From the IMG/VR virus record IMGVR_UViG_3300028888_000057: DNA of 64,000 bases; one strand, written 5' to 3'. The position numbers were made by a program, and so were the translations under genes. Within the stretch, counting starts at the first letter, position 1. Every line of letters begins with the position of its first letter. The notes under the pieces are model-generated. The model was not told the DNA's origin. It searched no databases and was given only the letters and a program-made list of their open reading frames with translations. This document shows, one piece after another, positions 1 to 58,080 of the stretch. Source of the stretch: a virus. Its lineage: Duplodnaviria; Caudoviricetes.

Positions 1-2936
1 ATTCGACCTGTATTGTTTAATTCAGCCGTTGCTATATTTTGTAATTCTTTAGGTAAATCATCTACTGTTTTTCCGGCGGCTTCTAGTAATGGCTCTAACC
101 ATGCCATAGGAGTAACAGCTGCTACAAGATCTTTCGCTTTGACTTCGTCCGGAAGAGCTATATAACCAGATCGTTCTTTTTCTTTAAGGCCTCTAATTTG
201 ACTTTGAATATACGATTCAGCTTCTTTTGAGTAAGCGAAATTAGCATCTTCGTCTAAAAGTCTAGAGTAATACGGGCTTCTTCTTAACGCTTCAATTCTT
301 CCTTCTGCGCTTTGAAGATGGAAACGTCTTCTCGCAAATTCTTCTTTTGACTTTGCTTGTGTTTTAGCGTCAATCCCTATTGCCGCAGCAGTCTGCTGAG
401 ACATAATCGTCGGATCCGAAGACAAATCGTATGCTGTTCGCATAACCATCCAATGCGGAGTAGCACGATCATGAAATGCACCTTGTTCCTCAGGAAGCAA
501 CGTAACAATCCCGCTTGATGAATTCACACGACCTTCTTTTCGCGCTTGTTCATATCCGGCTTCACCATATTCTCCAACGTATGATTTTTTATCTAAAAAT
601 TTAAACCCTTCAAATTGCTTCACGGATGAATCTGTAAGAATTGCTCCGATGTCGTCCGCATTAGCTTTAAAGAATTTTTGACGTCTTAACTCGCGTTTCT
701 GATCGTCTGTCAAACTACGTCCTTTGCCCATAAGATCAAGAACATCTTGTTTGTCCGCAGTTGCACTTGGAGCCCAATACATTAATTTGCCATTTTCGTT
801 TGAAACCATCCAATTGCCATTCGCAGATTCTCCAACTTCATCTGGATTAAATGTTCCCATAATAGATCCAAACATATAATCAAGATCAACAGGATTCATC
901 ACGTATTTAGCAAAGCCCATCGCTGACCGCATTTGCACTGGACCATTTTTAAATAATTTGTTACTTCCTAACGCAGCTCCGTCTATGCGGTTCGGTTTAC
1001 CTTCATATTTTTTTCCTAAAGCATCATACAATGCTTCCATGTTCATAATACGAGTCTGGAAAGGTTTTTCAAATTCACCAAAAACCTCTTCGTAAGGCAT
1101 AGAAGATGACGCAGATTTAGAAAAGTTATTTATTTGTTTTATAAGTTTATCTTCTGGTATATCTCTCAAACCATTAGCATTTAGACCGCCAAAAAAAGAT
1201 GGGATATGACGTTCTTCAGCCCATGTGTTAATTTGTTTTTTAAGATCATTTTCAATCAGCGAAATCGAATCTTCATTTTGCATTAAATATGAATATTTTC
1301 TTCCGCCATATTCATAATCTTTACTTACAAGATTTTTTAATTCTGGGAGTCGACTTTCATTGATTGTTCCATCTTTTAAAAAATATGGCTTTGTTGATAA
1401 CGTCAAGATTGGCGGCGTTTTATAGATCGGCTTACCTGTACTCTCATCGCGACCAAATCCGAACGTGCCATTACCAACTCCGAAGCTCATATTGTTTCCG
1501 TTGGAATCTTTCCAGATGTCGGAAATAAGTTTCATTATTGGACTGTTAGTTCTTACAATAAATTGATCGTCTTCTGACTGATCAAATAAACCTGTTTTCT
1601 TTTTCCAGTTTGGATCACTTTCAACAAGACGACCCGTAGAAGAATCAACCCTTGTACGAGGAATAATAAATTGAGTCGGCGTACCAACAGTTTTTATTTT
1701 CGAACCTGAACTTCTATATTCAATTGGAGATCTTAAATAATCATTTACATTAACATTAGAATCGGCAACGATAGAACCGTCTCGCGAAAGAAGATCTAAT
1801 ACACCAATAGCAGACCTAACGCGTCCGCTCATGCGTCGATCTTGACGAGTATTTTCGCTGAAATCACGAATGTCTGAATCGTAAAAAGCATATCCTCTTC
1901 TTGAATCAGCGATTTGCCTAAGCGACAATCCTGCAAGTTTTCCAGCTTGAGCTCTAGTCAAACTTTTAGCCCAACGAAGCTCACCGCCTTCTCGTCTTGC
2001 AACGCCAGCCGCCTCTAAAATATCATAAACGTCAGAAGCATCGTCACTGTGTTCGATATAATCTTGAAGTTCTTTATATAATCCGGTTTTAACATTTATT
2101 CTTTGCTTTGGACTTTTTAAAGACTGTCTCCAGTTTTGAATATCTTGTTCTTCTGCTGACCCATTATTATAGTAAGCTCTTCTGAATTGTTCTGGGATAA
2201 TATCATGTGCATAAGTATGCCGTCTACCTGCTTTAAAAGGCGCTTCTGCGAGAAGAGATTGTCCAATTGATCGAGAGGCAGATGTATTATTTGACAGCAA
2301 CATTAATCGTAAATTGTTTTTTATTTGCTGATCCGTAAATTCTTGTCCGTTTCCTGCTGCTTTAAAACTATTTTTTATCGCGTTGTCGTTTGCTAAAACA
2401 GAAACATACCGATCTAAAGTAGGAGTTTGACCTTTGAATTGCTTCGCATTTAACTCAGCAATCCTGTTATTAACAGCGCGATTCATGATCGTAGGCGCGT
2501 TTTGTTTGAATGCGTGTTTACTCCATCCTAAATCCTGATCGTATGCTTCGTTGATCGCATTGATTCTTGCCGCAAATTCACGCAATCCAAGACTTTTAGT
2601 TATTAACGATGTTTCATCTAAACCTTTTCCGTAGTCCCTTTTCATTTGATTAATTAATCCAGAAACAGTTCTGGTGACATCCATAAATGGAGCAACCAAG
2701 GACTGAGAAAAGTTCTTGCCAAATTTAGTAATTTGCGATTGAAGCGTTGTTAATCCGTTTGAATACAAATTTAAGCTTTCTAAAAAATATTGAACAGACT
2801 CATTTTGGGGATCGTTAAATAGATCGATGGGGCTGCTCTTAACATTATTTCTTAATTCTTCTACTGCCTGACTGGCATCGTCAATCCCTTGTTTATTTAA
2901 TGTTGTTAATATCTCAACTGAAACAGTATTTGACAT
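1..2936 (-). CDS. Giant virion protein at the tape-measure position (runs off the window start), with an internal region resembling YonO/RdRP-like RNA polymerases
   Basis: ATG at 2936 with GGAGG upstream; my hand translation is open to base 1 (MSNTVSVEILTTLNKQG...). It is absent from the ORF track because the stop lies outside the window. It follows the tail-chaperone genes. Motifs RIDG..QMR..AK, ILTDSSVK and EAESYIQ..RSG are colinear with the two RNAPs in the window. Confidence 0.7.
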   Translation of the reverse strand, partial: MSNTVSVEILTTLNKQGIDDASQAVEELRNNVKSSPIDLFNDPQNESVQYFLESLNLYSNGLTTLQSQITKFGKNFSQSLVAPFMDVTRTVSGLINQMKRDYGKGLDETSLITKSLGLREFAARINAINEAYDQDLGWSKHAFKQNAPTIMNRAVNNRIAELNAKQFKGQTPTLDRYVSVLANDNAIKNSFKAAGNGQEFTDQQIKNNLRLMLLSNNTSASRSIGQSLLAEAPFKAGRRHTYAHDIIPEQFRRAYYNNGSAEEQDIQNWRQSLKSPKQRINVKTGLYKELQDYIEHSDDASDVYDILEAAGVARREGGELRWAKSLTRAQAGKLAGLSLRQIADSRRGYAFYDSDIRDFSENTRQDRRMSGRVRSAIGVLDLLSRDGSIVADSNVNVNDYLRSPIEYRSSGSKIKTVGTPTQFIIPRTRVDSSTGRLVESDPNWKKKTGLFDQSEDDQFIVRTNSPIMKLISDIWKDSNGNNMSFGVGNGTFGFGRDESTGKPIYKTPPILTLSTKPYFLKDGTINESRLPELKNLVSKDYEYGGRKYSYLMQNEDSISLIENDLKKQINTWAEERHIPSFFGGLNANGLRDIPEDKLIKQINNFSKSASSSMPYEEVFGEFEKPFQTRIMNMEALYDALGKKYEGKPNRIDGAALGSNKLFKNGPVQMRSAMGFAKYVMNPVDLDYMFGSIMGTFNPDEVGESANGNWMVSNENGKLMYWAPSATADKQDVLDLMGKGRSLTDDQKRELRRQKFFKANADDIGAILTDSSVKQFEGFKFLDKKSYVGEYGEAGYEQARKEGRVNSSSGIVTLLPEEQGAFHDRATPHWMVMRTAYDLSSDPTIMSQQTAAAIGIDAKTQAKSKEEFARRRFHLQSAEGRIEALRRSPYYSRLLDEDANFAYSKEAESYIQSQIRGLKEKERSGYIALPDEVKAKDLVAAVTPMAWLEPLLEAAGKTVDDLPKELQNIATAELNNTGR

Positions 2937-2985: not shown

Positions 2986-3026
2986 AAACGAGCAAACCCC
3001 TGCAATTGAAAAGGAGGAAGACTCGC

Positions 3027-3371
3027 ATGGAAACAATATTAATCAATGAAGTTACTTGTCCTGCCTGCGGAGGGCATTTGTTTGACAAAGAATATATTGA
3101 AAAAAAGTTGTATATATGCAGGCAATCTGTTGATATGTACTTTAGATGTAATCACATACTTGCTTTCTGTAAACAATGCAACAAACTTCAAGACGAAAAA
3201 GAATTCGGAAAGCATGGCGATGTCTGGGAATGCAAAGAATGTGGCGCAATTTGTTGGCCATTAACTGACGAAAAAAGAAGAAGAGAAGAAATTCTTTCTA
3301 AATATGAATCTCGGTCTAAAAAGTTCAACAGCGTTGCCAACGAAATAGAATCTTTACTAAAAAATGAATAA
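3027..3371 (+). CDS. Small multi-CxxC zinc-ribbon protein (moron-like, antisense to the late operon)
   Basis: AAGGAGG RBS; CPACGG, CKQC, CKECG motifs. Confidence 0.75.
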   Translation: METILINEVTCPACGGHLFDKEYIEKKLYICRQSVDMYFRCNHILAFCKQCNKLQDEKEFGKHGDVWECKECGAICWPLTDEKRRREEILSKYESRSKKFNSVANEIESLLKNE

Positions 3372-3457: not shown

Positions 3458-3697
3458 ATGGAGCGCATAAGTAACTCGGTGCCCTGCCGCAAATGCGGAG
3501 CCAACGAACATATTCCAAGATATGCACAAAGAGATTTCTTTATATGTAAGAAATGTTCCCAGCCGATCGGTTACAGATGCTCCGGATGTGAAGAGTTTTT
3601 TGAGAATGCCGACAACCTATATTATGACGGCAGTATATACAGATGTAAAATATGTAACACTATACAGTGGGGTTATTCTGATTGGAAGCTACAATAA
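3458..3697 (+). CDS. Small multi-CxxC zinc-ribbon protein, related to the ORF at 3027
   Basis: AAGGAG RBS; four CxxC pairs. Confidence 0.75.
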   Translation: MERISNSVPCRKCGANEHIPRYAQRDFFICKKCSQPIGYRCSGCEEFFENADNLYYDGSIYRCKICNTIQWGYSDWKLQ

Positions 3698-6517: not shown

Positions 6518-9276
6518 TTACCTCTTGTAGTAAGCGGTGCTGTACGCGCCTTCATCGTTACGCTTAGCGTCCCAAATATGTTCAACACAGGTCGTTACTC
6601 TGTGCCCGCCTTTCGGCAGCTCTGCATCGCTGCAGAAGTTCTGACTATATCACGAACTCTTACGAGTCCCTCTTCATTTCGGATCACTTGATCCTACTCT
6701 ACTCGCTCGATCTCTCGGCTTTCGATAGTCGATAGGCATTTATTCACACACACGTTCAAAATAATGACCATTACACGGTTTGTTGTGTTTGATTGACCAA
6801 AAAATTGCTTCAGACGTTCTGTTGATAGAACGTCCTGCTTCTGCGCCGCTTCGGAAAACTTCGCCAGTTGTTAAATCTTTCACTGGAACATGAATTGAAT
6901 TCTTGTTGCCTTTTCTTGCAGCAGAAAAATTCTTCTTCTGCTCTTCGGACATCGGACCAGTTTTAAGCCCTTTATTCCACGGCGCATTGCCTCGGAAATG
7001 TGATTCAGCCAGTTTCTTCTTCTTTTCCTCTGAGAAGTTAAGACGTGCTTGGCTAATCTTCTGTCTTGTTTCTAGTGGCAATGTTCCACGATTTGGTTCT
7101 TCCAGCAGAATATTGTATCCATGTTCCTGTATGTTCGATTGATACTGCTCTATGTAGTATTTCTCTAATCTTACGCTTTCTTCGTAAGATAAGTCTTGAG
7201 CAAGTATTTCAAGTTCAAAGTTTTCCCATCCGTATTTACAGATAGCATTCCAGAATTTTGGACAGGTTTTATACCCGCTTCCATCTTTCTGAGCTCTTGC
7301 GCTAACCTTGCGCATTGTTCGGCCAATGTAAACTTTTGAATTAATCTTGTTAGTGTACTTATATACAATATTGTTGTTAGCTAATAAACTTTTTTCGTAT
7401 ACATGCACTGTTTAATCACTCCTCATATAATCGCTTTTTTGTGTGTGTGAAATTTAGCACGGGATTGTCTTCTTCTCTCCATTACGTCAATTTTCGAATG
7501 GCTTCAAAAATTTGAACCAATAGTATATGACAAAAGATAAGATAGAAGAGTTTCCCCGTTTAGAAGAGTTATTCAATGCAGCTTACGCTGCAAGGCCCCA
7601 GAGTTTATTTAGGGCTTGGAGTTCAAAGCTGAAGGTCGCAGCGCTCTTATAGCTCGTGTCCATACCAGGAATCTGAGTGATTCTAGCGCGGAACACCTTA
7701 ACGATGTAGTAGCCAGCAATAGCGCTCTCGGAGCAGTCGTCACCAGAGCCGTAAACCGGCCAGATTGCACTGCACTCGCCGATAGCGGATTCCTTATTGG
7801 TAACGATAGCTTCCTGCACTTCCTTCGTGTAATTGTACACGACATCCACGAAGTCGATATCATCGTCAGCAGAGAAGGTAATCTCCTTGCCATTGATCAG
7901 GTAATGACCCGCCGTCACAGTACCAGACTGAGTGGTGATGGGTTCCATACCAGCAATGTACACAGACCCTTCGATAGGAGTCTGCAGCAGGGTGATCTTG
8001 TGGTTAGCATCCGGCTCATGCCGCTCGCCAGTAGGCAGAGCATAGTTGGCATTCGCCGCATACTCGGTCTTGTTCGCCATAGCGAACAGGTCGGCATCAA
8101 ATTTGCCACACGTAAAATTCATCGTAAAAGTCGATGATCCGGGCAAAACAGCCACAGGGAACCATTGTGTTCAACGTAGGTCGTTACTCTACGTCCGTCT
8201 TTCGACAGCTGCATGTTGCCATGCAGATCAGACTATATTTATACCCAAGGATTATGCACATACTTGGGCCTATCTCTTTCGGGCCACTTGGCCCTACACC
8301 TTGGTGAGAGGTTAGTCGTTACACTTTACACAACACAATATTTAAATACTAATCCATCTGGATGCTTACGTGCTCCAGACACGTATCTCCAAATAGTCCT
8401 AGGCGTGACACCAAGTTCAGCGGCGCATTCTCTTACTGTTTTCCAAACTTGTCCCGTCTGAACACATGTGACACTATGAGGTTCTTTATTTGGTTTATAA
8501 TTGTCATCATCCACATACTTATAATGTTTGCCTTTACATTTATATCCATGATACAGACTTTCTTGCAAGCTAGCACTGTTGACATCGAGATCTTTTGCGC
8601 AGTAATTTGCACATTCCCACATTTCGCCCGTTTCAATACAAAGTACGGCTCTGGCGTTAGGGTTTTTACCACCTGACAACCCTGCGCCATCTCTACCACC
8701 AGACGTTATGTTGTATCCATATTGTCTTTCGTTGGACTTATACTTCGCAATTAATTCGATCTCAAGTGCATCAGCTTCTTCTCTGGATAAATTTGTTTTC
8801 ACAATTTCATGAACAATATTATCCCATCCGTATTTTCGAATTGCATTATAGAACATTTGTCCTTTGTATCTATGCCCTGTCGCGCCCCATCTTCTACGAG
8901 GATCGCCAGTACATTGACCGACATACTTTTTTCCATTTGCAACGACAGTATGAACATAAACAGTATACATATTAATCACTCCTTGTTATATCTGCTCAAC
9001 AATTGTGCTATTGTTGAGATTGTGTTGTGCTGTAGTTCGGGATTGTCCTCAAAGAGGAGTTCAACCGAATTAAGATAGACTCATTCATGCATTACTGCAT
9101 GAAGCCCCGTTTATTTCCAGGGACCACCCGGCGTTGATGTCCATAGTTTCAATGTTTGCGCTAACGGTCGCAGCGGTCAGTTCATCGAAGTAGAACGCAT
9201 GACCATCGCAGCGACGGAACACTACTTTCGGGACGTCAGCAACGTAACCCTTAAGAGCAGCATTATAAGTTGCCAT
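6518..9276 (-). CDS. Major tail (tube) protein in three exons: 9276-9119, 8162-7611, 6572-6518 (254 aa spliced)
   Basis: Splicing after U and after the terminal G restores the frame: ...NAGWSL/FPVAVLPG...FELQAL/DAKRNDEGAYSTAYYKR*. Codon style matches the capsid gene, and the gene precedes the chaperone. Confidence 0.8.
6740..7408 (-). CDS. Intron-encoded GIY-YIG homing endonuclease with NUMOD-type C-terminal repeats
   Basis: IVYKYTN...VYIGRT, AICKYGWENF, E..YI, GYN motifs. Confidence 0.85.
   Translation of the reverse strand: MHVYEKSLLANNNIVYKYTNKINSKVYIGRTMRKVSARAQKDGSGYKTCPKFWNAICKYGWENFELEILAQDLSYEESVRLEKYYIEQYQSNIQEHGYNILLEEPNRGTLPLETRQKISQARLNFSEEKKKKLAESHFRGNAPWNKGLKTGPMSEEQKKNFSAARKGNKNSIHVPVKDLTTGEVFRSGAEAGRSINRTSEAIFWSIKHNKPCNGHYFERVCE
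7475..7508 (-). promoter_or_regulatory. Putative phage-RNAP promoter inside intron 2, upstream of the endonuclease ORF
   Basis: TTGAAGCCATTCGAAAATTGACGTAATGG matches the repeated TGAAGCCAT-N-ATAAAGG motif. Confidence 0.5.
8163..9118 (-). mobile_element. Group I intron 1 of the tail-tube gene
   Basis: P1 CCCU/GGGG, GACUA and AUAUAGUC elements, terminal G; the 3' region GAGTAACGACCT..GTTGAACA is shared with intron 2. Confidence 0.85.
8326..8979 (-). CDS. Intron-encoded GIY-YIG homing endonuclease
   Basis: VYVHT...KYVGQ, NAIRKYGWDN, GYNITSGG, two NUMOD1-like repeats. Confidence 0.85.
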   Translation of the reverse strand: MINMYTVYVHTVVANGKKYVGQCTGDPRRRWGATGHRYKGQMFYNAIRKYGWDNIVHEIVKTNLSREEADALEIELIAKYKSNERQYGYNITSGGRDGAGLSGGKNPNARAVLCIETGEMWECANYCAKDLDVNSASLQESLYHGYKCKGKHYKYVDDDNYKPNKEPHSVTCVQTGQVWKTVRECAAELGVTPRTIWRYVSGARKHPDGLVFKYCVV

Positions 9277-15958: not shown

Positions 15959-16101
15959 TGTTTGTCTCCTTTTTGCTTTCAATTGTCAATGCTGGGAGTC
16001 AAGGCCAATTGAAGCGAATCTTTATATCAACAACCTTACGGTTGGAGATATTGAAAGTCCCGCCGGGTTGCGCATGAAACAGAGGCGTGGCGGGTTCTGT
16101 C

Positions 16102-16177
16102 TGGCTGCCCCTGTGGGGTTTGAACCCACGGCCTTCGGATTAACAGTCCGCTGCTCATCCAGCCGAGCTCAAGGGCA
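16102..16177 (-). tRNA. tRNA-Asn(GTT)
   Basis: 76-nt cloverleaf, anticodon arm CGGA-CTGTTAA-TCCG, GTTCAA T-loop, encoded CCA. Confidence 0.9.
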
Positions 16178-22976: not shown

Positions 22977-23251
22977 AGACAAAAGGTAGGTATAAAAGCC
23001 TGCTTTTTTATTTCAACATACGTGAACAGAAGAGCTCTGAGTAATCAGAGTTCTTTTTTATATATCAACATGCATGAAGTACTCGCTCATGCATTACAAC
23101 CGCAAAATCCCAGCGGTATGAGTGTGGCAATTGGGTGCCGTGCTATACGAAACATAGCTCAAGGCCGAGCAGGCGCATCTTAGCTCAAAGATGCAAATGT
23201 TTATCAATTCTATTTTGTTGTCTCTTAAGTGAGACAGAAAGGAAGGAAACC

Positions 23252-26200
23252 ATGTCTAAGATTAATACTTCTATTGCTGTCGTCTCCGCTCTGATCAACG
23301 AAGGGAAAATTCCGACGAAGGTGGCAAATGCTTTAGCGATTTCTCTGTCTGTAACCGAATTAAGACAGATCGTTGCCAACAATGCTCTTGACCGTCTCAT
23401 GAAGATTGAAGGCATCGGTGAAAAGAGAGCTGCAACCATTATTAAGGTGCTTACTGGAAAGATCCCTCAGCGGCTTTCCGAGAGCCGCACCGGCAAGAAG
23501 ATCAGCACTCGGGAACCGAGCGTAGGGTTCTCCCTTCGTTCGTTCGCTTCCAAGACCGTAATGAAGGAATATGTTCCGTACATCGAAGCGATAAATAATA
23601 TCGAACTGTACAAAGAAACCGAAAACGGTCGTATGCTCGATGACGAAGCATTGCTTGATGCCCGTCAGGCATATGCTGAACTCAAGAAGTTTTCGAACGA
23701 ACTGGACGAAAAGAACTTACCGTTCTCTCTGTTCCAGAACGAAGGAACTATCTCACGGATGAGCCGCAGCATCGGCTCTGACATTTTCGGGATCGATTAC
23801 ACCTCAAAGAAACCGACAACCGCATGGATTACTGTCGAACATGGAATCCAAGAGCTGATCAATTTCAATTGGCACGTTTTCGGCAACACGAAAACCGAAG
23901 CCGAAGCTGAAAAGAATCGCCTGCAGCAGGAAATCGAACACAGACTCGGTAACGCCGGTGTTCGGATGTATGTTGGCAACACGAGCGTAGAAAGCTCAAT
24001 GATCCACTACGGTGGATTCGCAGCTTCAGCATCTCACCAGAAAGACGAGAAGTTGGTTATGGCTGACGCAAAACTTATGAAGCTTCATGAAGAAGCAATC
24101 TGGTTCACTATGAAGATGGCCGAAGTATTTGATCTTGAGATCAACGGAGCGGCAATTTGGAAAATGAGAGCAAACCTTCTTAGACCGATCCGTTGCGGTC
24201 TCAAAATCAAAGGTGGTCGCCAGCTTACGCTGAATGACATCGAAATTAAGGAACCGATCATTGTTAATCGTGTCATCAAGAACGCTCGAAAGATTGGTGA
24301 ACTGAACGAAGAGACGGGTGAAATCTTCGAAGACGGCAAAATGGCTGTTGAAAAGACCTTGGCCGACGGCACTCTTATGTCTACCGTGGAACTCGAACAG
24401 TGGGGTCAGACCACTTCTTATGGCATCAAGGGATGCTCGGGAGACGGAGCCGCTCCGATCAAGTACGCAGCGAAACTGGAAGGGAAAGAAGTTCCTTTGA
24501 TGAAACCCATCCTTATGGATGGGGGATGCTGGAAATTCGATAAAGTCAGATGTTCCTGGGAAGAATTCGTTCGTAGAGCGAACAAGCTCGCCGAACGGTA
24601 TCCGAGTTTGAATAAACTCTGGCTGCTCCGCGAAGGAGACGAGCTGGAAGACGACGTTAAAGTTCGTCGACTGACTCGGAGTCTTATTCAGCAGTGGATC
24701 CATCTCGACGCTCGCGACATCCGTATGATCACTAAGAAGAGCCGCAAGAGCCTGAACAAAATGAAGACCTTAAAGGGTGCTATCAACATGATGGCCGAGA
24801 CTGGACGGGAAGAAAAGAGCCAGTTGGGTAAGGTGTTTGAGAAAGCACCGTGGCTGGTACTTAATCCTGAAGTTCAGAGATATCTCGAAACAAGGTTTGT
24901 CCGGAAACAGAGGGAAGCTGCGGCATGTAAGTTTAAGACGACTGGGTTTTATCCTTACATTCAGGAAGACTTTGTTGCCATCGCCCAAATTTGGGTGTTT
25001 GGTGCCGATTCCAACCGTATGGATCTGGGCGTGTTGAAGGCAGGCGAAATGAGCGTCGCTGATGTGGCACCCAAGCAGAAAATGCTGGCAGTCCGGTTTC
25101 CTGCGAACTATCAGACCGCTGCCGTACGTATCAATGTGCCTTGTCGCGAAGCTTTCAGTTCTTGCAGCAACATCTGCATGATCTCAATCTACGACGATAT
25201 CCTGATCCGTCAGGATGGTGACGTAGATGGTGACGAAATGGCCATCATTCTGGATGAAATCGCAATAGCTGCGACTGAAAGAATGTACGAAGAGTTCAAT
25301 CCTCCGGTTGTCGTGTTCGCACACGGAGGAAAGGCTCCGAAGAAAAAGATCAGCAATCGGGCTGGTCTTATTGAAACTATGTATAATGACTTGTGGAAGG
25401 CCAAGAAGTTTGATGGCGTTGGAAAGTATGCCAATCTGGCAACTCTTTGTTGCCACCTTGCTTCTCTGGCTTATGCCCATGGAGATATGGACGAAGTTAA
25501 GATGCGCCTTGTTCAGATGTCTCTGGCATCGACTGGTGCTATCTTAGCGATTGACCAAGTGAAAGGCAACGCCGTCAGCGACGAGCTGATCGAGCGACTG
25601 GAACAGATCAGCAAGTCTGTCAGGAACCAGTGTCTGAACATGATGCCGTTCACTCAGCAGTTCGTCAAAGGCCTGAAGGCTGATGAAGTTCTGCCTGAAA
25701 GTGATGCTTTGTGTGATCAGATGGCTGGTCTGATCATTCGCGATACCAACGACAAGGAAACCAACGGTTATAAACTTGAAGTTGGTAACGCGCAGTGGAA
25801 CGCAAAGGAAGCGAAGCGGGCTATGCTCGACTTTGGCCTGAGAACGACTTCACTCCGGAACTCTCCTGTTCCGAAGAGCATTCTCGATACACTGGCGGAT
25901 AACTGGTTCAACGACAAGAACAATGCTGATCAGGAGACCTTCCGTCTGATCAAGGCTGGTCAGCCCGTTCAGATGAAGGATCTGGTACTTCTCATGTGGA
26001 GAAATGCATGTGCGTTGGAATTCCGTATGACCGGGGATAATCTGACCGCCAAGCGGGAAGAGTATCTGAAGATTGTACGTGAAATGCTGTATACACAGGC
26101 AACCTCTGCTAAATGGGTTGGTAATGACGGGCACGTATTCACCGATGCCGAAAAGAAAGCTTCTGTCGTGAACGTTCTGGTGTATGATGCACTTAACATG

Positions 26201-26500
26201 AGCGGCAAAGGCAATGGTATCGATGATGACAAGAAGGGATCCTATGCAATCTTCGTACTGAAGGTGTTTGCGAAGGAGATCCTCTGGTGTCTCGAACGGA
26301 ACCATGCAGATGCCAACCTGTTCAACATCAAGTATGCGACTGCTACCGATCTGGAGATCGAAGAGTCCGCAGAAGCGATTGAGAACATTCTGGCCGACGG
26401 GTGGGGCAACATTGACGAAGATCAGGAAGTGTGGTTCTCCGATGAGGATAACTACACAGACTATGATCTTGGCGACAATGACTATGTAGAAGAATGTTAA
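23252..26500 (+). CDS. Single-subunit two-barrel RNA polymerase (YonO/RdRP-like) with N-terminal helix-hairpin-helix
   Basis: Catalytic DGDVDGD, VRFP, LADG..GIKG and AIDQVK motifs; HhH IEGIGEKRA; RBS before ATG 23252. Confidence 0.8.
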   Translation: MSKINTSIAVVSALINEGKIPTKVANALAISLSVTELRQIVANNALDRLMKIEGIGEKRAATIIKVLTGKIPQRLSESRTGKKISTREPSVGFSLRSFASKTVMKEYVPYIEAINNIELYKETENGRMLDDEALLDARQAYAELKKFSNELDEKNLPFSLFQNEGTISRMSRSIGSDIFGIDYTSKKPTTAWITVEHGIQELINFNWHVFGNTKTEAEAEKNRLQQEIEHRLGNAGVRMYVGNTSVESSMIHYGGFAASASHQKDEKLVMADAKLMKLHEEAIWFTMKMAEVFDLEINGAAIWKMRANLLRPIRCGLKIKGGRQLTLNDIEIKEPIIVNRVIKNARKIGELNEETGEIFEDGKMAVEKTLADGTLMSTVELEQWGQTTSYGIKGCSGDGAAPIKYAAKLEGKEVPLMKPILMDGGCWKFDKVRCSWEEFVRRANKLAERYPSLNKLWLLREGDELEDDVKVRRLTRSLIQQWIHLDARDIRMITKKSRKSLNKMKTLKGAINMMAETGREEKSQLGKVFEKAPWLVLNPEVQRYLETRFVRKQREAAACKFKTTGFYPYIQEDFVAIAQIWVFGADSNRMDLGVLKAGEMSVADVAPKQKMLAVRFPANYQTAAVRINVPCREAFSSCSNICMISIYDDILIRQDGDVDGDEMAIILDEIAIAATERMYEEFNPPVVVFAHGGKAPKKKISNRAGLIETMYNDLWKAKKFDGVGKYANLATLCCHLASLAYAHGDMDEVKMRLVQMSLASTGAILAIDQVKGNAVSDELIERLEQISKSVRNQCLNMMPFTQQFVKGLKADEVLPESDALCDQMAGLIIRDTNDKETNGYKLEVGNAQWNAKEAKRAMLDFGLRTTSLRNSPVPKSILDTLADNWFNDKNNADQETFRLIKAGQPVQMKDLVLLMWRNACALEFRMTGDNLTAKREEYLKIVREMLYTQATSAKWVGNDGHVFTDAEKKASVVNVLVYDALNMSGKGNGIDDDKKGSYAIFVLKVFAKEILWCLERNHADANLFNIKYATATDLEIEESAEAIENILADGWGNIDEDQEVWFSDEDNYTDYDLGDNDYVEEC

Positions 26501-30345: not shown

Positions 30346-30420
30346 GGGGCATTAACGCAACGGTAGCGTATCTGCTTTGCAAGCAGAAGGTTGCAGGTTC
30401 AAGTCCTGTATGCTCCACCA
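30346..30420 (+). tRNA. tRNA-Ala(TGC)
   Basis: Cloverleaf, TCTGC-TTTGCAA-GCAGA, G3.U70 pair, CCA end. Confidence 0.9.
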
Positions 30421-30517
30421 CGACTGAGGGCGACGTTAGGGCGGTCGTAAAATAAAACTCTGAACAAGTCACTGTCAAAAGCCGGCAAATGTTTGACATA
30501 CTTGACGTCGTATCTAT

Positions 30518-30588
30518 CGAAGGTGTGGTGTAACGGTAACACGCGTCACCAGGAATGACGAGTCGCAGTTCGAATCTGACATCTTCGA
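30518..30588 (+). tRNA. Atypical or pseudo tRNA-Pro(AGG)
   Basis: Acceptor, D and anticodon stems intact; loop CCAGGAA has C33; T-stem imperfect; no CCA. Confidence 0.5.
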
Positions 30589-30721
30589 CGTGTCGCGACT
30601 GATGTGTGGAGTTTTGATTTCTTTCGGCCATACAGAGAATGACAATCCAATGAAAGAAATAGCGGCATGGTGACAGCCGGTTGAAAAAGAAGGGCTCGCT
30701 ACCCAGTCACCTTATCATTAT

Positions 30722-30808
30722 GGCTCGTTGGCGCAAATGGAAGATTCGCAAGTGATTTAAAATCACTCGGGGCATATCCCCATATCGGTTCGAGTCCGAT
30801 ACGAGCCA
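30722..30808 (+). tRNA. tRNA-Leu(TAA)
   Basis: AGTGA-TTTAAAA-TCACT, long variable arm, GTTCGAG T-loop. Confidence 0.85.
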
Positions 30809-35574: not shown

Positions 35575-35661
35575 GCGAGGGTGGCAGAGTTGGCTGATCG
35601 CTCCGGTCTTGAAAACCGGTGAGCCTACTGGGCTCCGAGGGTTCGAATCCCTCCTCTCGCG
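35575..35661 (+). tRNA. tRNA-Ser(TGA)
   Basis: CCGGT-CTTGAAA-ACCGG, long variable arm, GTTCGAATCC. Confidence 0.9.
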
Positions 35662-35668
35662 CTATTAT

Positions 35669-35745
35669 GCACCCTTAGCTAAGTTGGTCGTAGCTGCGGC
35701 CTTGTAAGCCGTGTAATCAGCTGGGTTCGAGTCCCAGAGGGTGTA
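35669..35745 (+). tRNA. tRNA-Thr(TGT)
   Basis: GCGGC-CTTGTAA-GCCGT; acceptor GCACCCT/AGGGTGT. Confidence 0.8.
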
Positions 35746-54226: not shown

Positions 54227-57200
54227 GTGTCTTCGGTGAAGACATACCTGCAAGATCAGGTAAGGTTGGTAACGCTGAGCAGTAACGATTTATTTACAGA
54301 TGATGAATATAGTCAATATGTAAAGATCGTGCAGCTAGGCAACACGTACAACGAAAGGATCGGAAAAGGAGAAGACAAGGATACTCTGAAGCCAATTCTC
54401 CGGGAAAAAGAAAAGCTCAAAGAAAAATTGTCAACAACTATTCAGAAAAGAGGGGAGAATCCTCGGGTTGTTAATCTGAACATGGTTGTTCATCATTCCA
54501 AAGACTCTCCATTTCCATTTCCGAAAGGTATTACGTGGAAAAATCTCAAAATCACACGCAGGATTGCAGAATTTTCATGTGAACTGACAAGAGCAATGGG
54601 TCTCAATAATCTGGACTGTACGCTTGATCTGATCGTGATTAAATGGAAAGACTTGAATCTTCTGAAGCAGCTGGTACTGTATGGATTCTATATGCCGATT
54701 CTCCATGGAGACGAAGTTGAAATGAGACACTATCAGTTTCTGACTGCATCAGCCGGACAGTTGAGACGCGACAAAACAATCTTCATTTCGGATGAGATGT
54801 GGAACAAGATTCACAGACGCATCGAGTGTGGAATGAACTGGGAAAGAATCAATGTTCATGGAGGTATCGTCGCAAATAAACTGCTGGCTTATATTGCGTT
54901 GGCTAACAGTGCTACGGATGTCTGGACGGACTTTGATATTGACCGGTGTATTGTCATAGACGATTTCGAGGCTGAAGTAACTGATCGAATGATGTATATT
55001 AAGGAAGATTATACATATGAGATCGGTAAACGAACGGTAATGATCAACCACACTGATGGATGTGGAATGATGCTGCCAACAGTCTCGAAACTGAATTTTA
55101 TGACAAGACTGCCATTCATCAAAGGATTGCTTGTGAGCTTTGATTATATTAAATTCTGCAAAGTCAATAATGTTCCTCCGATTATCAAGGATATTTATGG
55201 CAAAGAACATGACCTGATTAAAGAAAATATACAGATAATCTTTACGAAGAGTATGTTCAAAGCCTATAAGTATTTTGAAAGCTTCGAAGAGTACAAAGCA
55301 GAATTTAAAGCATGTGGCGCACAGGCCGGAATTACCAATTATGAAGAAGAGTATATTCCGGATGCGACATTGAATTATCAATTCATTCAAACACTAGTAA
55401 ATTTTACTGATGAGGAGATACAACAATTCATCAAAAATGATCATGATAAGATTGAAAAGCTTGGAACCAACAAAGATTCAATGTTGAACACGTTGGGAGC
55501 CAGAAAGGAATCTGACAATCCTTATAAAGCGGCGCTGGCATACTATCCGGAACTGTTGAGAGAAGCGTATAGCAAAGAAACGATTCGAGCGATCAGGAAG
55601 AGTATGATGCTGGATGCAAAGTCTGGAAAGATTCACTGCGAAAACAAGAGATTGTTTGCAGTACCTGATCTCTACGCCGCCTGTGAGCGGTGGTTTATGG
55701 GGATCGAAGAACCAGAAGGATTGTTAAGGGGAAATGAAATAGCTTGTCTGCCGTATAGAAGGCATGATAAAGCAGATGTTCTAAGAAGTCCGCATTAACA
55801 TAGGTGCCTTTACACAGTAATGTGTATCGAAAAATGTGGTTAACCTGTAAATACAGGGTGTCGCTGAAAAGCGGCTAACGGAGAACGAACTAAACGATAG
55901 AGTTTGGAGGTGAGAAAATGAGCAAGCTTAAAGATTTAACTGGACGGATGTTTGGATTTCTTTACGTTCAAAGAAGAATGCCTAATTATGTTCAAGAAAA
56001 CGGAAGAACAAGAACGAGATGGCTAACAACGTGTCTCTTGTGTGGAAAAGCTTATGTTGCAGATGGTAGTCATTTGCTGCACGGTGATATTATTAGTTGT
56101 GGCTGTTTTAAGAACATGAAAAGCGCATTAAGAGGTCAAGAATATACAGGCGTCCAGAAACCAATTCGAGATTTGACCGGCATGAAATTTGGATATCTTA
56201 GAGTAATTGAAAGATGCGAAAATTTTGGGCCAAAAACAGCATGGTTATGTTTGTGTGAGAATTGTGGCAGTTATACAAAGGTTCGCTCGAATCATCTCCT
56301 TCGAGGATTAGTATCCAGTGATGGCTGTATAAAGTCTGTAAGAGAAGAGCAAATGGCAAAATGGTTTAATGAACACAAAATTCCATTTGAAAGAGAATAT
56401 ACTTTTCCAGACTTATTAGGCGAAGGTGGAAGTAATCTAAGATTCGATTTTGGTTTAATAGACAAGAAAAATAATTTAATTTGTTTAGTTGAATATCAAG
56501 GAGAACAACATGGTTTAGATAAAACTGGAGAGTTTGGCAGACAACAAAGAGAACAAACTGACAAACAAAAAATTGATTATTGTTTAATAAACCATCTTGC
56601 TTTTCAAAGTGTTTGGTACAATAGAGATTTTGAAGAGCAAATGCAAGAAATCGAAAAGTTCTATCGCAAGTCAACTGCCGTGCCAAACCGGAAAACCGGA
56701 AGGTGTATCGACTATCCCGAGAGGGAGTAGGGTTCAAGTGAAACTCTTGAATTCGAAACGCCACACAACCCGTAAGGGCTGATGACATAGTCAACTCCGC
56801 TACGAAATATCGGGAAACCGACGGTACGAAGGTTAGCAATGGAACATTTTATCTGCCCAATTGTTCATGATCAGAAAATATATGATTGGTTTTATACAAA
56901 CGGAGTCGTAACTTCTTGTCACAGCATGGTATCGAGGGTGCTCCAGTTCGATGTCGATGGAGATCAACTTAACGTAATTGTTGATCCGTTATTCATTAAG
57001 GTTGCTGAAAAGAATATCAAAGAGTTTGACGTGGTTCCATTATTCTATGACGCAGAGAAAGGTGATGCTACTCTGATGTCAAAGGAGGCACAGTTTGAAG
57101 GTCTGAAGATTGCCCATGAATATTCAGGTATCGGAGAAATATCAAACATGCTGACAAGACTATGGAATCGAAATACTCAGGACAGGATTGCTGCCGCATT

Positions 57201-58080
57201 TCTTTGCAGATTTAACAACGCTGTGATCGATGCAGCAAAGATTGCCAAGATCAATCACTATAATCAGTATCCTGAAATTGAAAAACGTATCAACAAAGCT
57301 ATAGGAGGCAAGAACTCACGTATGCCTGCTTGGTTCAAGTACTCTAAGAATCAGAGGAAAAATGGCAATGAACACAAGCAGTATGCAAAACCCAATAACT
57401 CAACAATGAACCGAATATCTTCTTACTTTGATGATATTGGAAAGATCAACATGAATTTTGCTGGGGTGCCGTCATTCAACTGGCAAATGCTTCTCAGCGG
57501 GCCGTGTACAAATACATGGCCGGAAATTCCAATGCTGTTCTGTGAGATGGATAATGTTAATATTTCTAACGTAATCGAATCTCATGACATTCCTTATGCA
57601 TCTGAGAAACAGAAGATCAATGGTTATTCCATGATGGCAGAAATGATCAAGGATGAAATCATTGATCAGTTTGGTTCGTTAGAAACTGCATATCCGTATG
57701 TAGTAAAACATCTGTTTGCAGGAGAAGGTATGAATAAAGCCGCTCACAAACAGATGTTCTGGCGCGTGTTTGGCAATATTGCGCTGGAAAACTTAAAGAA
57801 AAATGTTAACAACTGTGATGTTTGTCCGGATTGTAAGATGAGAATCCCATCGTGGGTGAAGGATCATTATTGTGTGAAGAATACATCCGGCTTCTATGAA
57901 TGTATAGATTGCCATAAGATGTGTGAAAGAACTTCTTCATCGCAATATCGATGCGCAGATTGTCAAAATAAATATCGACTAACACAAAGAAAACTGGCTC
58001 AGAGAAACCGTCGAAACCAATTGAAAGAGGATGAAGAGAAACGTATTGTTTCCTGGCTATCGTCCTTCAGGGAGATATAA
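54227..58080 (+). CDS. YonO-like single-subunit RNA polymerase in two exons: 54227-55795 and 56833-58080 (938 aa)
   Basis: TASAGQLR, HTDGCGM, R.PFIKG, spliced RSPH/LAMEH, catalytic FDVDGD, IDAAK. Confidence 0.88.
55796..56832 (+). mobile_element. Group I intron in the RNAP gene
   Basis: P1 GCAU/GUGC, GACUA and GACAUAGUC elements, terminal G; removal restores the frame. Confidence 0.85.
55918..56730 (+). CDS. Intron-encoded homing endonuclease (Zn repeats plus Vsr/PD-(D/E)XK-like domain)
   Basis: Two DLTG..FG.L.V..W.C.C.CG..SCGC repeats; LRFDF..VEYQGEQH..D..K. Confidence 0.8.
   Translation: MSKLKDLTGRMFGFLYVQRRMPNYVQENGRTRTRWLTTCLLCGKAYVADGSHLLHGDIISCGCFKNMKSALRGQEYTGVQKPIRDLTGMKFGYLRVIERCENFGPKTAWLCLCENCGSYTKVRSNHLLRGLVSSDGCIKSVREEQMAKWFNEHKIPFEREYTFPDLLGEGGSNLRFDFGLIDKKNNLICLVEYQGEQHGLDKTGEFGRQQREQTDKQKIDYCLINHLAFQSVWYNRDFEEQMQEIEKFYRKSTAVPNRKTGRCIDYPERE

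Follow-up and report, generated by a model that had tools for sequence, protein, structure and literature searches.

The left edge of the 64,000-nucleotide (nt) stretch analysed here, from the Caudoviricetes record IMGVR_UViG_3300028888_000057 and called the window throughout, holds the beginning of a giant minus-strand gene whose predicted product joins an RNA polymerase (RNAP) module to a phage tape measure. An earlier note on the window had placed a third RNAP domain at positions 1-1100, in a protein in the tape-measure position. According to the list of open reading frames (ORFs) and their translations, this region lies within a single minus-strand ORF, 3..2936, of 978 amino acids (aa) with an open 3' end (P0001). 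Each of the peptides then quoted occurs there: RIDGAALG (nt 989), VQMRSAMGFAK (938), AILTDSSVK (644), IMSQQTAAAIGIDA (407) and PYYSRLLDED (275). An exhaustive phmmer search of 1.84 billion representatives recovered the full-length protein, P0005, from a 149,320-bp JGI/IMG contig; it comprises 5782 aa, and its residues 1-978 are 100% identical to P0001. The in-window part comprises the following features:

3..2936, minus strand: P0001, the first 978 codons of the 5782-aa tape-measure protein, running past the window's left edge
1353..2936, minus strand: N-terminal ~528 aa of P0005, in which close relatives conserve, for example, HDIIPEQFR and RGYAFYD (invariant alignment columns)
3..1352, minus strand: in-window part of the predicted RNAP module (aa ~529-978), with N-terminal domain, beta-like barrel (DPBB-B; DPBB, double-psi beta-barrel) and connector
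978..983, minus strand: D652-G653, aligned with the invariant (H)TDG of the YonO family (G653 in 14/15 and D652 in 11/11 family members)
906..935, minus strand: Q668-M-R670...K677, basic residues of the beta-like barrel, invariant in 15/15
618..620, minus strand: K773, the final residue of AILTDSSVK, invariant in 15/15 and aligned with the invariant K of the YonO-family IIFTKSxFK

The N-terminal ~528 aa matched no recognisable family in Pfam, PHROGs or PDB sequence searches.

A predicted polymerase module

Past the window's last codon P0005 reads ...AAFNRNPDAPDQ... and, after 47 residues, ...NTGDFDGDTIRMY. Codons 18-70 past the edge hold the predicted catalytic barrel (R996-x-P998, D1043FDGD1047), with R996-N-P998 18 aa and D1043-F-D-G-D1047 65 aa past it. 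The latter is the sole D.DGD within the 5782 aa, and the former, 47 aa upstream of it, falls within the 20-100 aa before DxDxD in which the filter of PMC10770324 (Suppl. Data 4) seeks an [RK]xP motif; the R.P-to-DxDGD spacing is 47-63 aa across the family and ~42-43 in the window's own YonO-like genes. Blind to this sequence, the earlier note had predicted R.P and DxDGD within a few hundred codons beyond the edge; both are present just past it, and neither varies among the family members (15/15). Across these 15 sequences, which are 20-50% identical, the unvarying residues are Q668, R670, K677, K773, A939, R996, P998 and D1043-D1047, a set which, as aligned, includes the catalytic signatures of both barrels. 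In the alignment R670 and K677 fall opposite an R and a K that are invariant throughout the YonO family (R294 and K299 as numbered in P0003), and the stretch Q668-M-R670...K677 is expected to contact the substrate phosphate and the RNA 3' end.

The relationship to YonO emerges from comparison of whole profiles. In hhalign, a 15-sequence profile with P0005 as master matched a 26-sequence YonO profile with an expectation value (E) of 5.3e-5 over 397 columns, the alignment spanning P0005 528-1052 and YonO 121-544 and thus the N-domain, both barrels, R.P and DxDGD; the reversed-sequence control for the same 15-sequence profile gave 0.49, and such controls lay at 0.4-0.6 overall. A profile comparison with RNAPs resembling RNA-dependent RNA polymerases (RdRPs) had been suggested at the outset, and this match to the YonO family is significant. 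Within the same single alignment all four motif pairings originally drawn by hand were recovered in their order, namely DG...Q.R...K with TDGCG...R...K, AILTDSSVK with IIFTKSQFK, IMSQQTAAAIG with TYQMLQTL, and SKEAES...ERSGYI with HTKEII...AKSGKL, from which the alignment continues through R.P and DxDGD. The peptides used for comparison were located in two real YonO-like RNAP genes of the window. Taken one by one, the motif pairs were no better than chance, and comparisons with fewer sequences were likewise uninformative: BLASTP of P0001 against P0003, an RNAP of the window, found no match and against P0002 gave E=0.002 in a register different from the proposed pairing, hhalign with 5 family sequences was not significant (E=0.15 against 4 YonO sequences, 0.37 against 26), YonO motif sub-profiles missed the correct place in P0005, and hmmsearch with the hidden Markov model of the family came back empty. 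Language-model features of residues 560-1440 of the relative P0010 score 0.93, with 183/256 features shared, and 22/30 matches are PF05183 RdRP clusters. The profile similarity to YonO, being significant, supports assignment of the module to the superfamily of two-barrel single-chain RNAPs.

Structure prediction points in the same direction. In an AlphaFold model of P0010 built from the family only, a predicted two-barrel polymerase fold is shown for this relative; its best full-domain PDB matches are RDR2, QDE-1, P74-26 gp62 and P23-45 gp96, and of 48,161 chains compared, those matching best over the full domain are without exception two-barrel RNAPs (given here with the two values recorded for each):

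7W84_A, maize RDR2: 12.9; 405
7Y7P_A, QDE-1: 10.4; 404
8F5M_A, P74-26 gp62 non-virion RNAP: 9.5; 352
8H2M_A / 8H2N_A, P23-45 gp96 virion RNAP: 8.1 / 8.0; 325 / 322

An earlier AlphaFold model from 5 sequences was unusable, with a predicted local distance difference test score (pLDDT) of 40.8.

Elsewhere in the window two further genes of the YonO type are encoded on the plus strand:

23135..26500, plus strand: P0002, a stand-alone divergent YonO-like RNAP with RFP...DGDVDGD (phrog_8308 at 3.5e-17; hhalign against the YonO family E=1.3e-9, 514 columns)
54227..55798 and 56839..58080, plus strand: second YonO-like RNAP, split (phrog_8308 at 8e-121 and 5e-39; 42% identity to SPbeta YonO)
55918..56730, plus strand: HNH homing-endonuclease ORF of 270 aa between the split YonO halves (HNH PHROGs)

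P0002 is the first large gene on the plus-strand arm and a candidate non-virion polymerase. The split falls exactly behind the conserved ...LRSPH, with the R.P motif, at which the first half ends, and the second restarts just before DVDGD (aa 38). Rfam detected no group I intron at gathering score in it, returning a weak hit at 56593-56814 (16.6 bits, E=0.23), and the arrangement could reflect an intron or a truly split gene. Among 80 related viral loci the YonO-like gene is intact as one ORF in only 32.

The tape measure and its relatives

By its domain content P0005 is a genuine tape measure. The PF10145 (PhageMin_Tail) domain is found in the relatives L086 and L091 at residues ~2540-2950 (E=6e-27 and 6e-29), P0005 2644-2853 is 77% identical to the PF10145 segment of a relative, and beyond this core P0005 has a stretch that is hydrophobic and rich in glycine, as well as long sequence resembling coiled coil. 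Upstream, and sharing its strand, are genes for terminase, portal, major head and adaptor/chaperone-like proteins, which puts ORF 3..2936 in the tail-module position; on the contig of a relative, YomU-type tube and YomX_C genes precede the homologue. The polymerase had originally been described as fused to, or standing in for, the tape measure. The presence of the PF10145 core bears out the first option and disposes of the second, since the polymerase comes in addition to the tape and not in its place.

The same phmmer search returned relatives of 6256, 5646, 1728 and 896 aa, together with a 1114-aa protein from the cluster of the last, and a metagenome scan for NTGDFDGD added seven more, mostly giant ORFs of >4000 aa and one of them TAG-recoded. 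Three near-complete IMG/VR phage genomes (CheckV 92-100%) were located via their YonO genes: G001 (148 kb), G002 (124.6 kb) and G005 (150 kb). Their tape-measure ORFs, taken as open frames from stop to stop, comprise 5061, 5162 and 5519 aa, respectively, each with one ...ADFDGDVM-type motif near residue 950-1050. Two of the three genomes have terminal repeats. The two of 148-150 kb are complete, and the 124.6-kb one is near-complete at 92%. In hhalign their N-terminal modules match the family of the window with E=8e-24 over 612 columns and the YonO family with E=2e-5 over 402 columns. In all, polymerase module and tape measure share one ORF, in the same order, on at least 10 independent contigs, with uninterrupted ORFs of 4182-6256 aa running from the DFDGD module to the PF10145 core in P0005, P0006, P0007, L086, L089-L091 and the three IMG/VR genomes.

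Other searches for relatives were negative within their scope. When the window DNA, P0001, P0002 and the P0010 core served as queries, megablast and tblastn matched none of 50,697 phage records; word-indexed searches for homologues, whether at near, longer or shorter lengths, yielded a single 146-aa fragment and otherwise nothing; a related-locus search with P0001 in viral and metagenome contigs found none; and the NTGDFDGD pattern was absent from 185,579 species genomes, so that no host genome or prophage was identified. A search of five related phage records with P0001 was likewise empty, which we regard as a failure of sensitivity because their tape measures carry the homologous module.

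Several features of these genes and their surroundings may be recorded here. The tape core of L086 is 77% identical to that of P0005, as against ~24% for the N-terminal polymerase module, which suggests that the two parts evolve at very different rates or that modules have been exchanged. At P0005 ~1415-1680, to the left of the window, the polymerase module is followed by a PD-(D/E)xK-like series (..PDLML.., ..IDYKSS.., ..QSIFY) that is invariant in close relatives; Pfam searches of L086 and L091 returned no nuclease family. A run of at least 8 glycines at P0005 4495-4502 is invariant in three giant close relatives, and a 2026 paper reportedly links homorepeats in tape measures to tail length. 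On contig L001:4851-10516 (ENA) the homologue P0010 stops after 1728 aa, within the nuclease-like segment, and the next ORF begins 3 nt later; the polymerase gene could be free-standing there, or the break could come from a frameshift or from an error in sequencing. The contig L087:1-14824 (JAEEGL016803088.1) has 40 in-frame TAG codons with few TGA or TAA, and with TAG read as Q it gives a clean ORF with HRNP...NTGDFDGDT; it probably derives from an amber-recoded phage.

In the window itself, two small Cys-rich ORFs (zinc-ribbon-like, CxxC...CxxC) at 3006-3371 and 3458-3697 on the plus strand lie directly upstream of the tape-measure gene start, on the opposite strand to it. Two paralogous homing-endonuclease ORFs (phrog_314, GIY-YIG type; 6740-7408 and 8326-8979, minus strand) sit amid head and tail structural genes. 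There are six tRNA genes, at 16058-16177 on the minus strand and at 30346-30808 and 35575-35745 on the plus strand, one of them lying with an abiF RNA motif (39.9 bits, just over gathering score) between portal and the next structural gene.

Possible function and alternative explanations

Taken together, R.P and DxDGD, the YonO profile match and the modelled fold support a third RNAP domain in the protein in the tape-measure position. We consider it likely that ORF 3..2936 is the N-terminus of a 5782-aa tape measure in which a single-chain two-barrel RNAP related to the YonO/QDE-1/RdRP clade occupies residues ~530-1170 and may extend to ~1400. The fused architecture, the invariant predicted active-site set and the YonO-type profile similarity are evident from the comparisons above, and RNA-polymerising activity, packaging in the virion and injection of P0005 would follow by analogy. 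The analogue is gp96 of phage P23-45, a 5002-aa tape measure with an active N-terminal virion RNAP (active fragment 327-1124, DFDGD at 779-783; structures PDB 8H2M/8H2N), which transcribes the pre-early genes, including that of a non-virion RNAP, probably while it is retained at the pore of the tape measure (Chaban et al. 2024, Nat Commun, PMC10770324). If P0005 works likewise, it would be assembled inside the tail tube and ejected before the DNA at infection, its tape part forming or lining a channel across the envelope, and its polymerase would transcribe the first-entering (pre-early) genes off the incoming genome without need of the host polymerase. Transcription of later gene classes would then fall to P0002 and the split YonO-like enzyme.

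Several observations weigh against this interpretation. The modelled sequence is that of the relative P0010, 26% identical, and not the window's own protein, and pLDDT is only ~57-65 around the DxDGD barrel, a moderate confidence. Foldseek puts RdRP-type proteins first with E values that are not significant (PDB 0.49, BFVD 0.028). Pfam and PHROGs detected no RNAP family in P0001, its last 378 aa, P0010 or P0018, the latter two queries containing DFDGD, and for P0001, P0010 and P0018 there was no hit to PF05183 or phrog_8308 even at E up to 10; the module accordingly belongs to neither of these curated families and only to the wider two-barrel superfamily. Searches of the PDB by sequence returned nothing for P0001 or for a 5-sequence profile, and YonO itself has no solved relative there by sequence. 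The in-window part alone has a language-model score of 0.76, with no RdRP-like features and no family, and by itself is not recognisable as a polymerase from its sequence. The barrels are joined by a connector that exceeds that of YonO by ~100 aa, so that the clamp-less form thought to let gp96 through the tail is not evident in P0005. Finally, its presence in the virion, its ejection, its staying fused and its polymerisation of RNA are all argued from analogy.

It is conceivable, if rather unlikely, that the module adopts the two-barrel fold and yet is no injected transcriptase: it might be an inactive structural relic, be cleaved in tail assembly, act on another substrate (primase-like or RNA-templated), or process the genome end together with the nuclease-like segment next to it. 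This would accord with the PD-(D/E)xK-like motif series after the module, with the longer inter-barrel connector, and with the ability of QDE-1-type enzymes to accept both RNA and DNA templates (PMC9508822). However, a relic would hardly keep every catalytic residue invariant, as is seen in 15 members whose identity is 20-50%, the sole experimentally studied tape-measure fusion is an active DNA-dependent virion RNAP (PMC10770324), and two other polymerases are already encoded by the phage for transcription later on.

There is very little to commend the idea that R.P...DFDGD and the collinear short matches arose by chance, the N-terminus being a non-enzymatic extension of the tape or a metal- or calcium-binding loop. 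The single-sequence and small-profile comparisons, which are not significant, and the Pfam, PHROGs and PDB sequence searches without a match would fit it, but the profile-profile values of 5.3e-5 and 2e-5 with clean reversed controls, the exclusively two-barrel RNAPs among the best full-domain matches of 48,161 chains, and the coincidence of the invariant residues with the catalytic set of both barrels speak against it. The consensus of the EF-hand loop has Gly-6 and Glu-12, both of which the motif lacks. That assembly or gene calling artificially joined a polymerase gene to a tape-measure gene is the least credible explanation: the stop of P0010 at 1728 aa on L001, with a new ORF 3 nt on, shows that separate genes are possible in some relatives, but uninterrupted ORFs of 4182-6256 aa with the same order recur in P0005, P0006, P0007, L086, L089-L091 and the three near-complete IMG/VR genomes.

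Returning to a tail-borne transcriptase as the preferred reading, we tentatively sketch a wider scenario, as a possibility rather than the probable course of events. In it the fusion would be independent of the Thermus case, a YonO/RdRP-clade polymerase having been captured by a TP901-type tape in a group of 125-150-kb phages that is itself widespread; the module would evolve far faster than the tape (~24% versus 77%); a cascade of three polymerases would operate, the tail-delivered enzyme being followed by two non-virion YonO-like ones; and the embedded nuclease-like segment would have the incoming end of the genome as its substrate. The independent origin of the fusion is in itself plausible.

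Comparison with known systems

To our knowledge, tape measures were not suspected until 2024 of carrying a transcription-starting enzyme, and the only worked example is a small group of Thermus phages of the P23-45 type. Judged by sequence, the window provides a second and distinct case of a polymerase on a tape, with a YonO/RdRP-like module on another type of tape and two more YonO-like polymerases in the genome; the published precedent of gp96 lowers its novelty. In the literature searched we found no description of this 125-150-kb phage lineage. The recurrence of this design in another lineage of large phages, one that appears to be common (at least 10 contigs), suggests that tail-delivered transcription is a recurrent strategy, and the invisibility of the module to Pfam and PHROGs suggests that many giant proteins annotated as tape measures conceal polymerases. 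Three polymerases of the same superfamily per genome would offer a natural system for studying the divergence of promoter specificity and temporal control.

Of the enzymes nearest in modelled structure, RDR2 and QDE-1 (7W84, 7Y7P) are eukaryotic polymerases of cellular RNA silencing whose sequences are 8-9% identical to that of the model, and the likeness is one of fold only. The YonO-like phage RNAPs as a group belong to phrog_8308 and match Pfam PF05183 (RdRP) weakly. YonO of the Bacillus prophage SPbeta shares the motif order of the tape-fused module, but is a free-standing 839-aa non-virion enzyme, whereas the module of P0005 lies inside a 5782-aa tail protein, has ~100 aa inserted between the barrels relative to YonO, and is not detected by phrog_8308 or PF05183.

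The virion polymerases of N4 and of the crAss-like phages had at first been offered as the analogues. The N4 virion RNAP is a T7-like single-subunit enzyme and not a two-barrel one. Its right-hand fold was not encountered here, the fold matches being two-barrel enzymes, so that the analogy to N4 is functional only. What N4 and gp66 of phi14:2 share with P0005 is the concept of a virion-packaged polymerase that is delivered with the DNA and resides within a very large protein (PMC10770324); gp66 belongs to a podovirus-type virion, lies outside any tape measure, and is absent among the structural matches listed.

The best analogue is instead P23-45 gp96, in which polymerase module and tape measure likewise form one ORF of the tail module, in a phage that encodes a separate non-virion RNAP too, as P0002 and the split YonO-like gene are candidates to do here. 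There is, however, no BLAST-level similarity anywhere between the two proteins, the tape part included. A possible match of the family to the DPBB-A region of gp96 is confined to the catalytic barrel (P=0.0018 with an 11-sequence profile, 0.018 with 15 sequences), FRNP...STGVDFDGDT being paired with NRNP...NTGDFDGDT. In structure, the modelled module resembles RDR2, QDE-1 and gp62 more closely than it does gp96, and its inter-barrel connector is long, whereas that of gp96 is short and disordered. Unlike gp96, which has a metallopeptidase domain, P0005 has the PF10145 (TP901-type) core. The gp96 phage infects another host lineage, has a genome of 84 kb against 149 kb, and carries one further polymerase where the phage of the window carries two.

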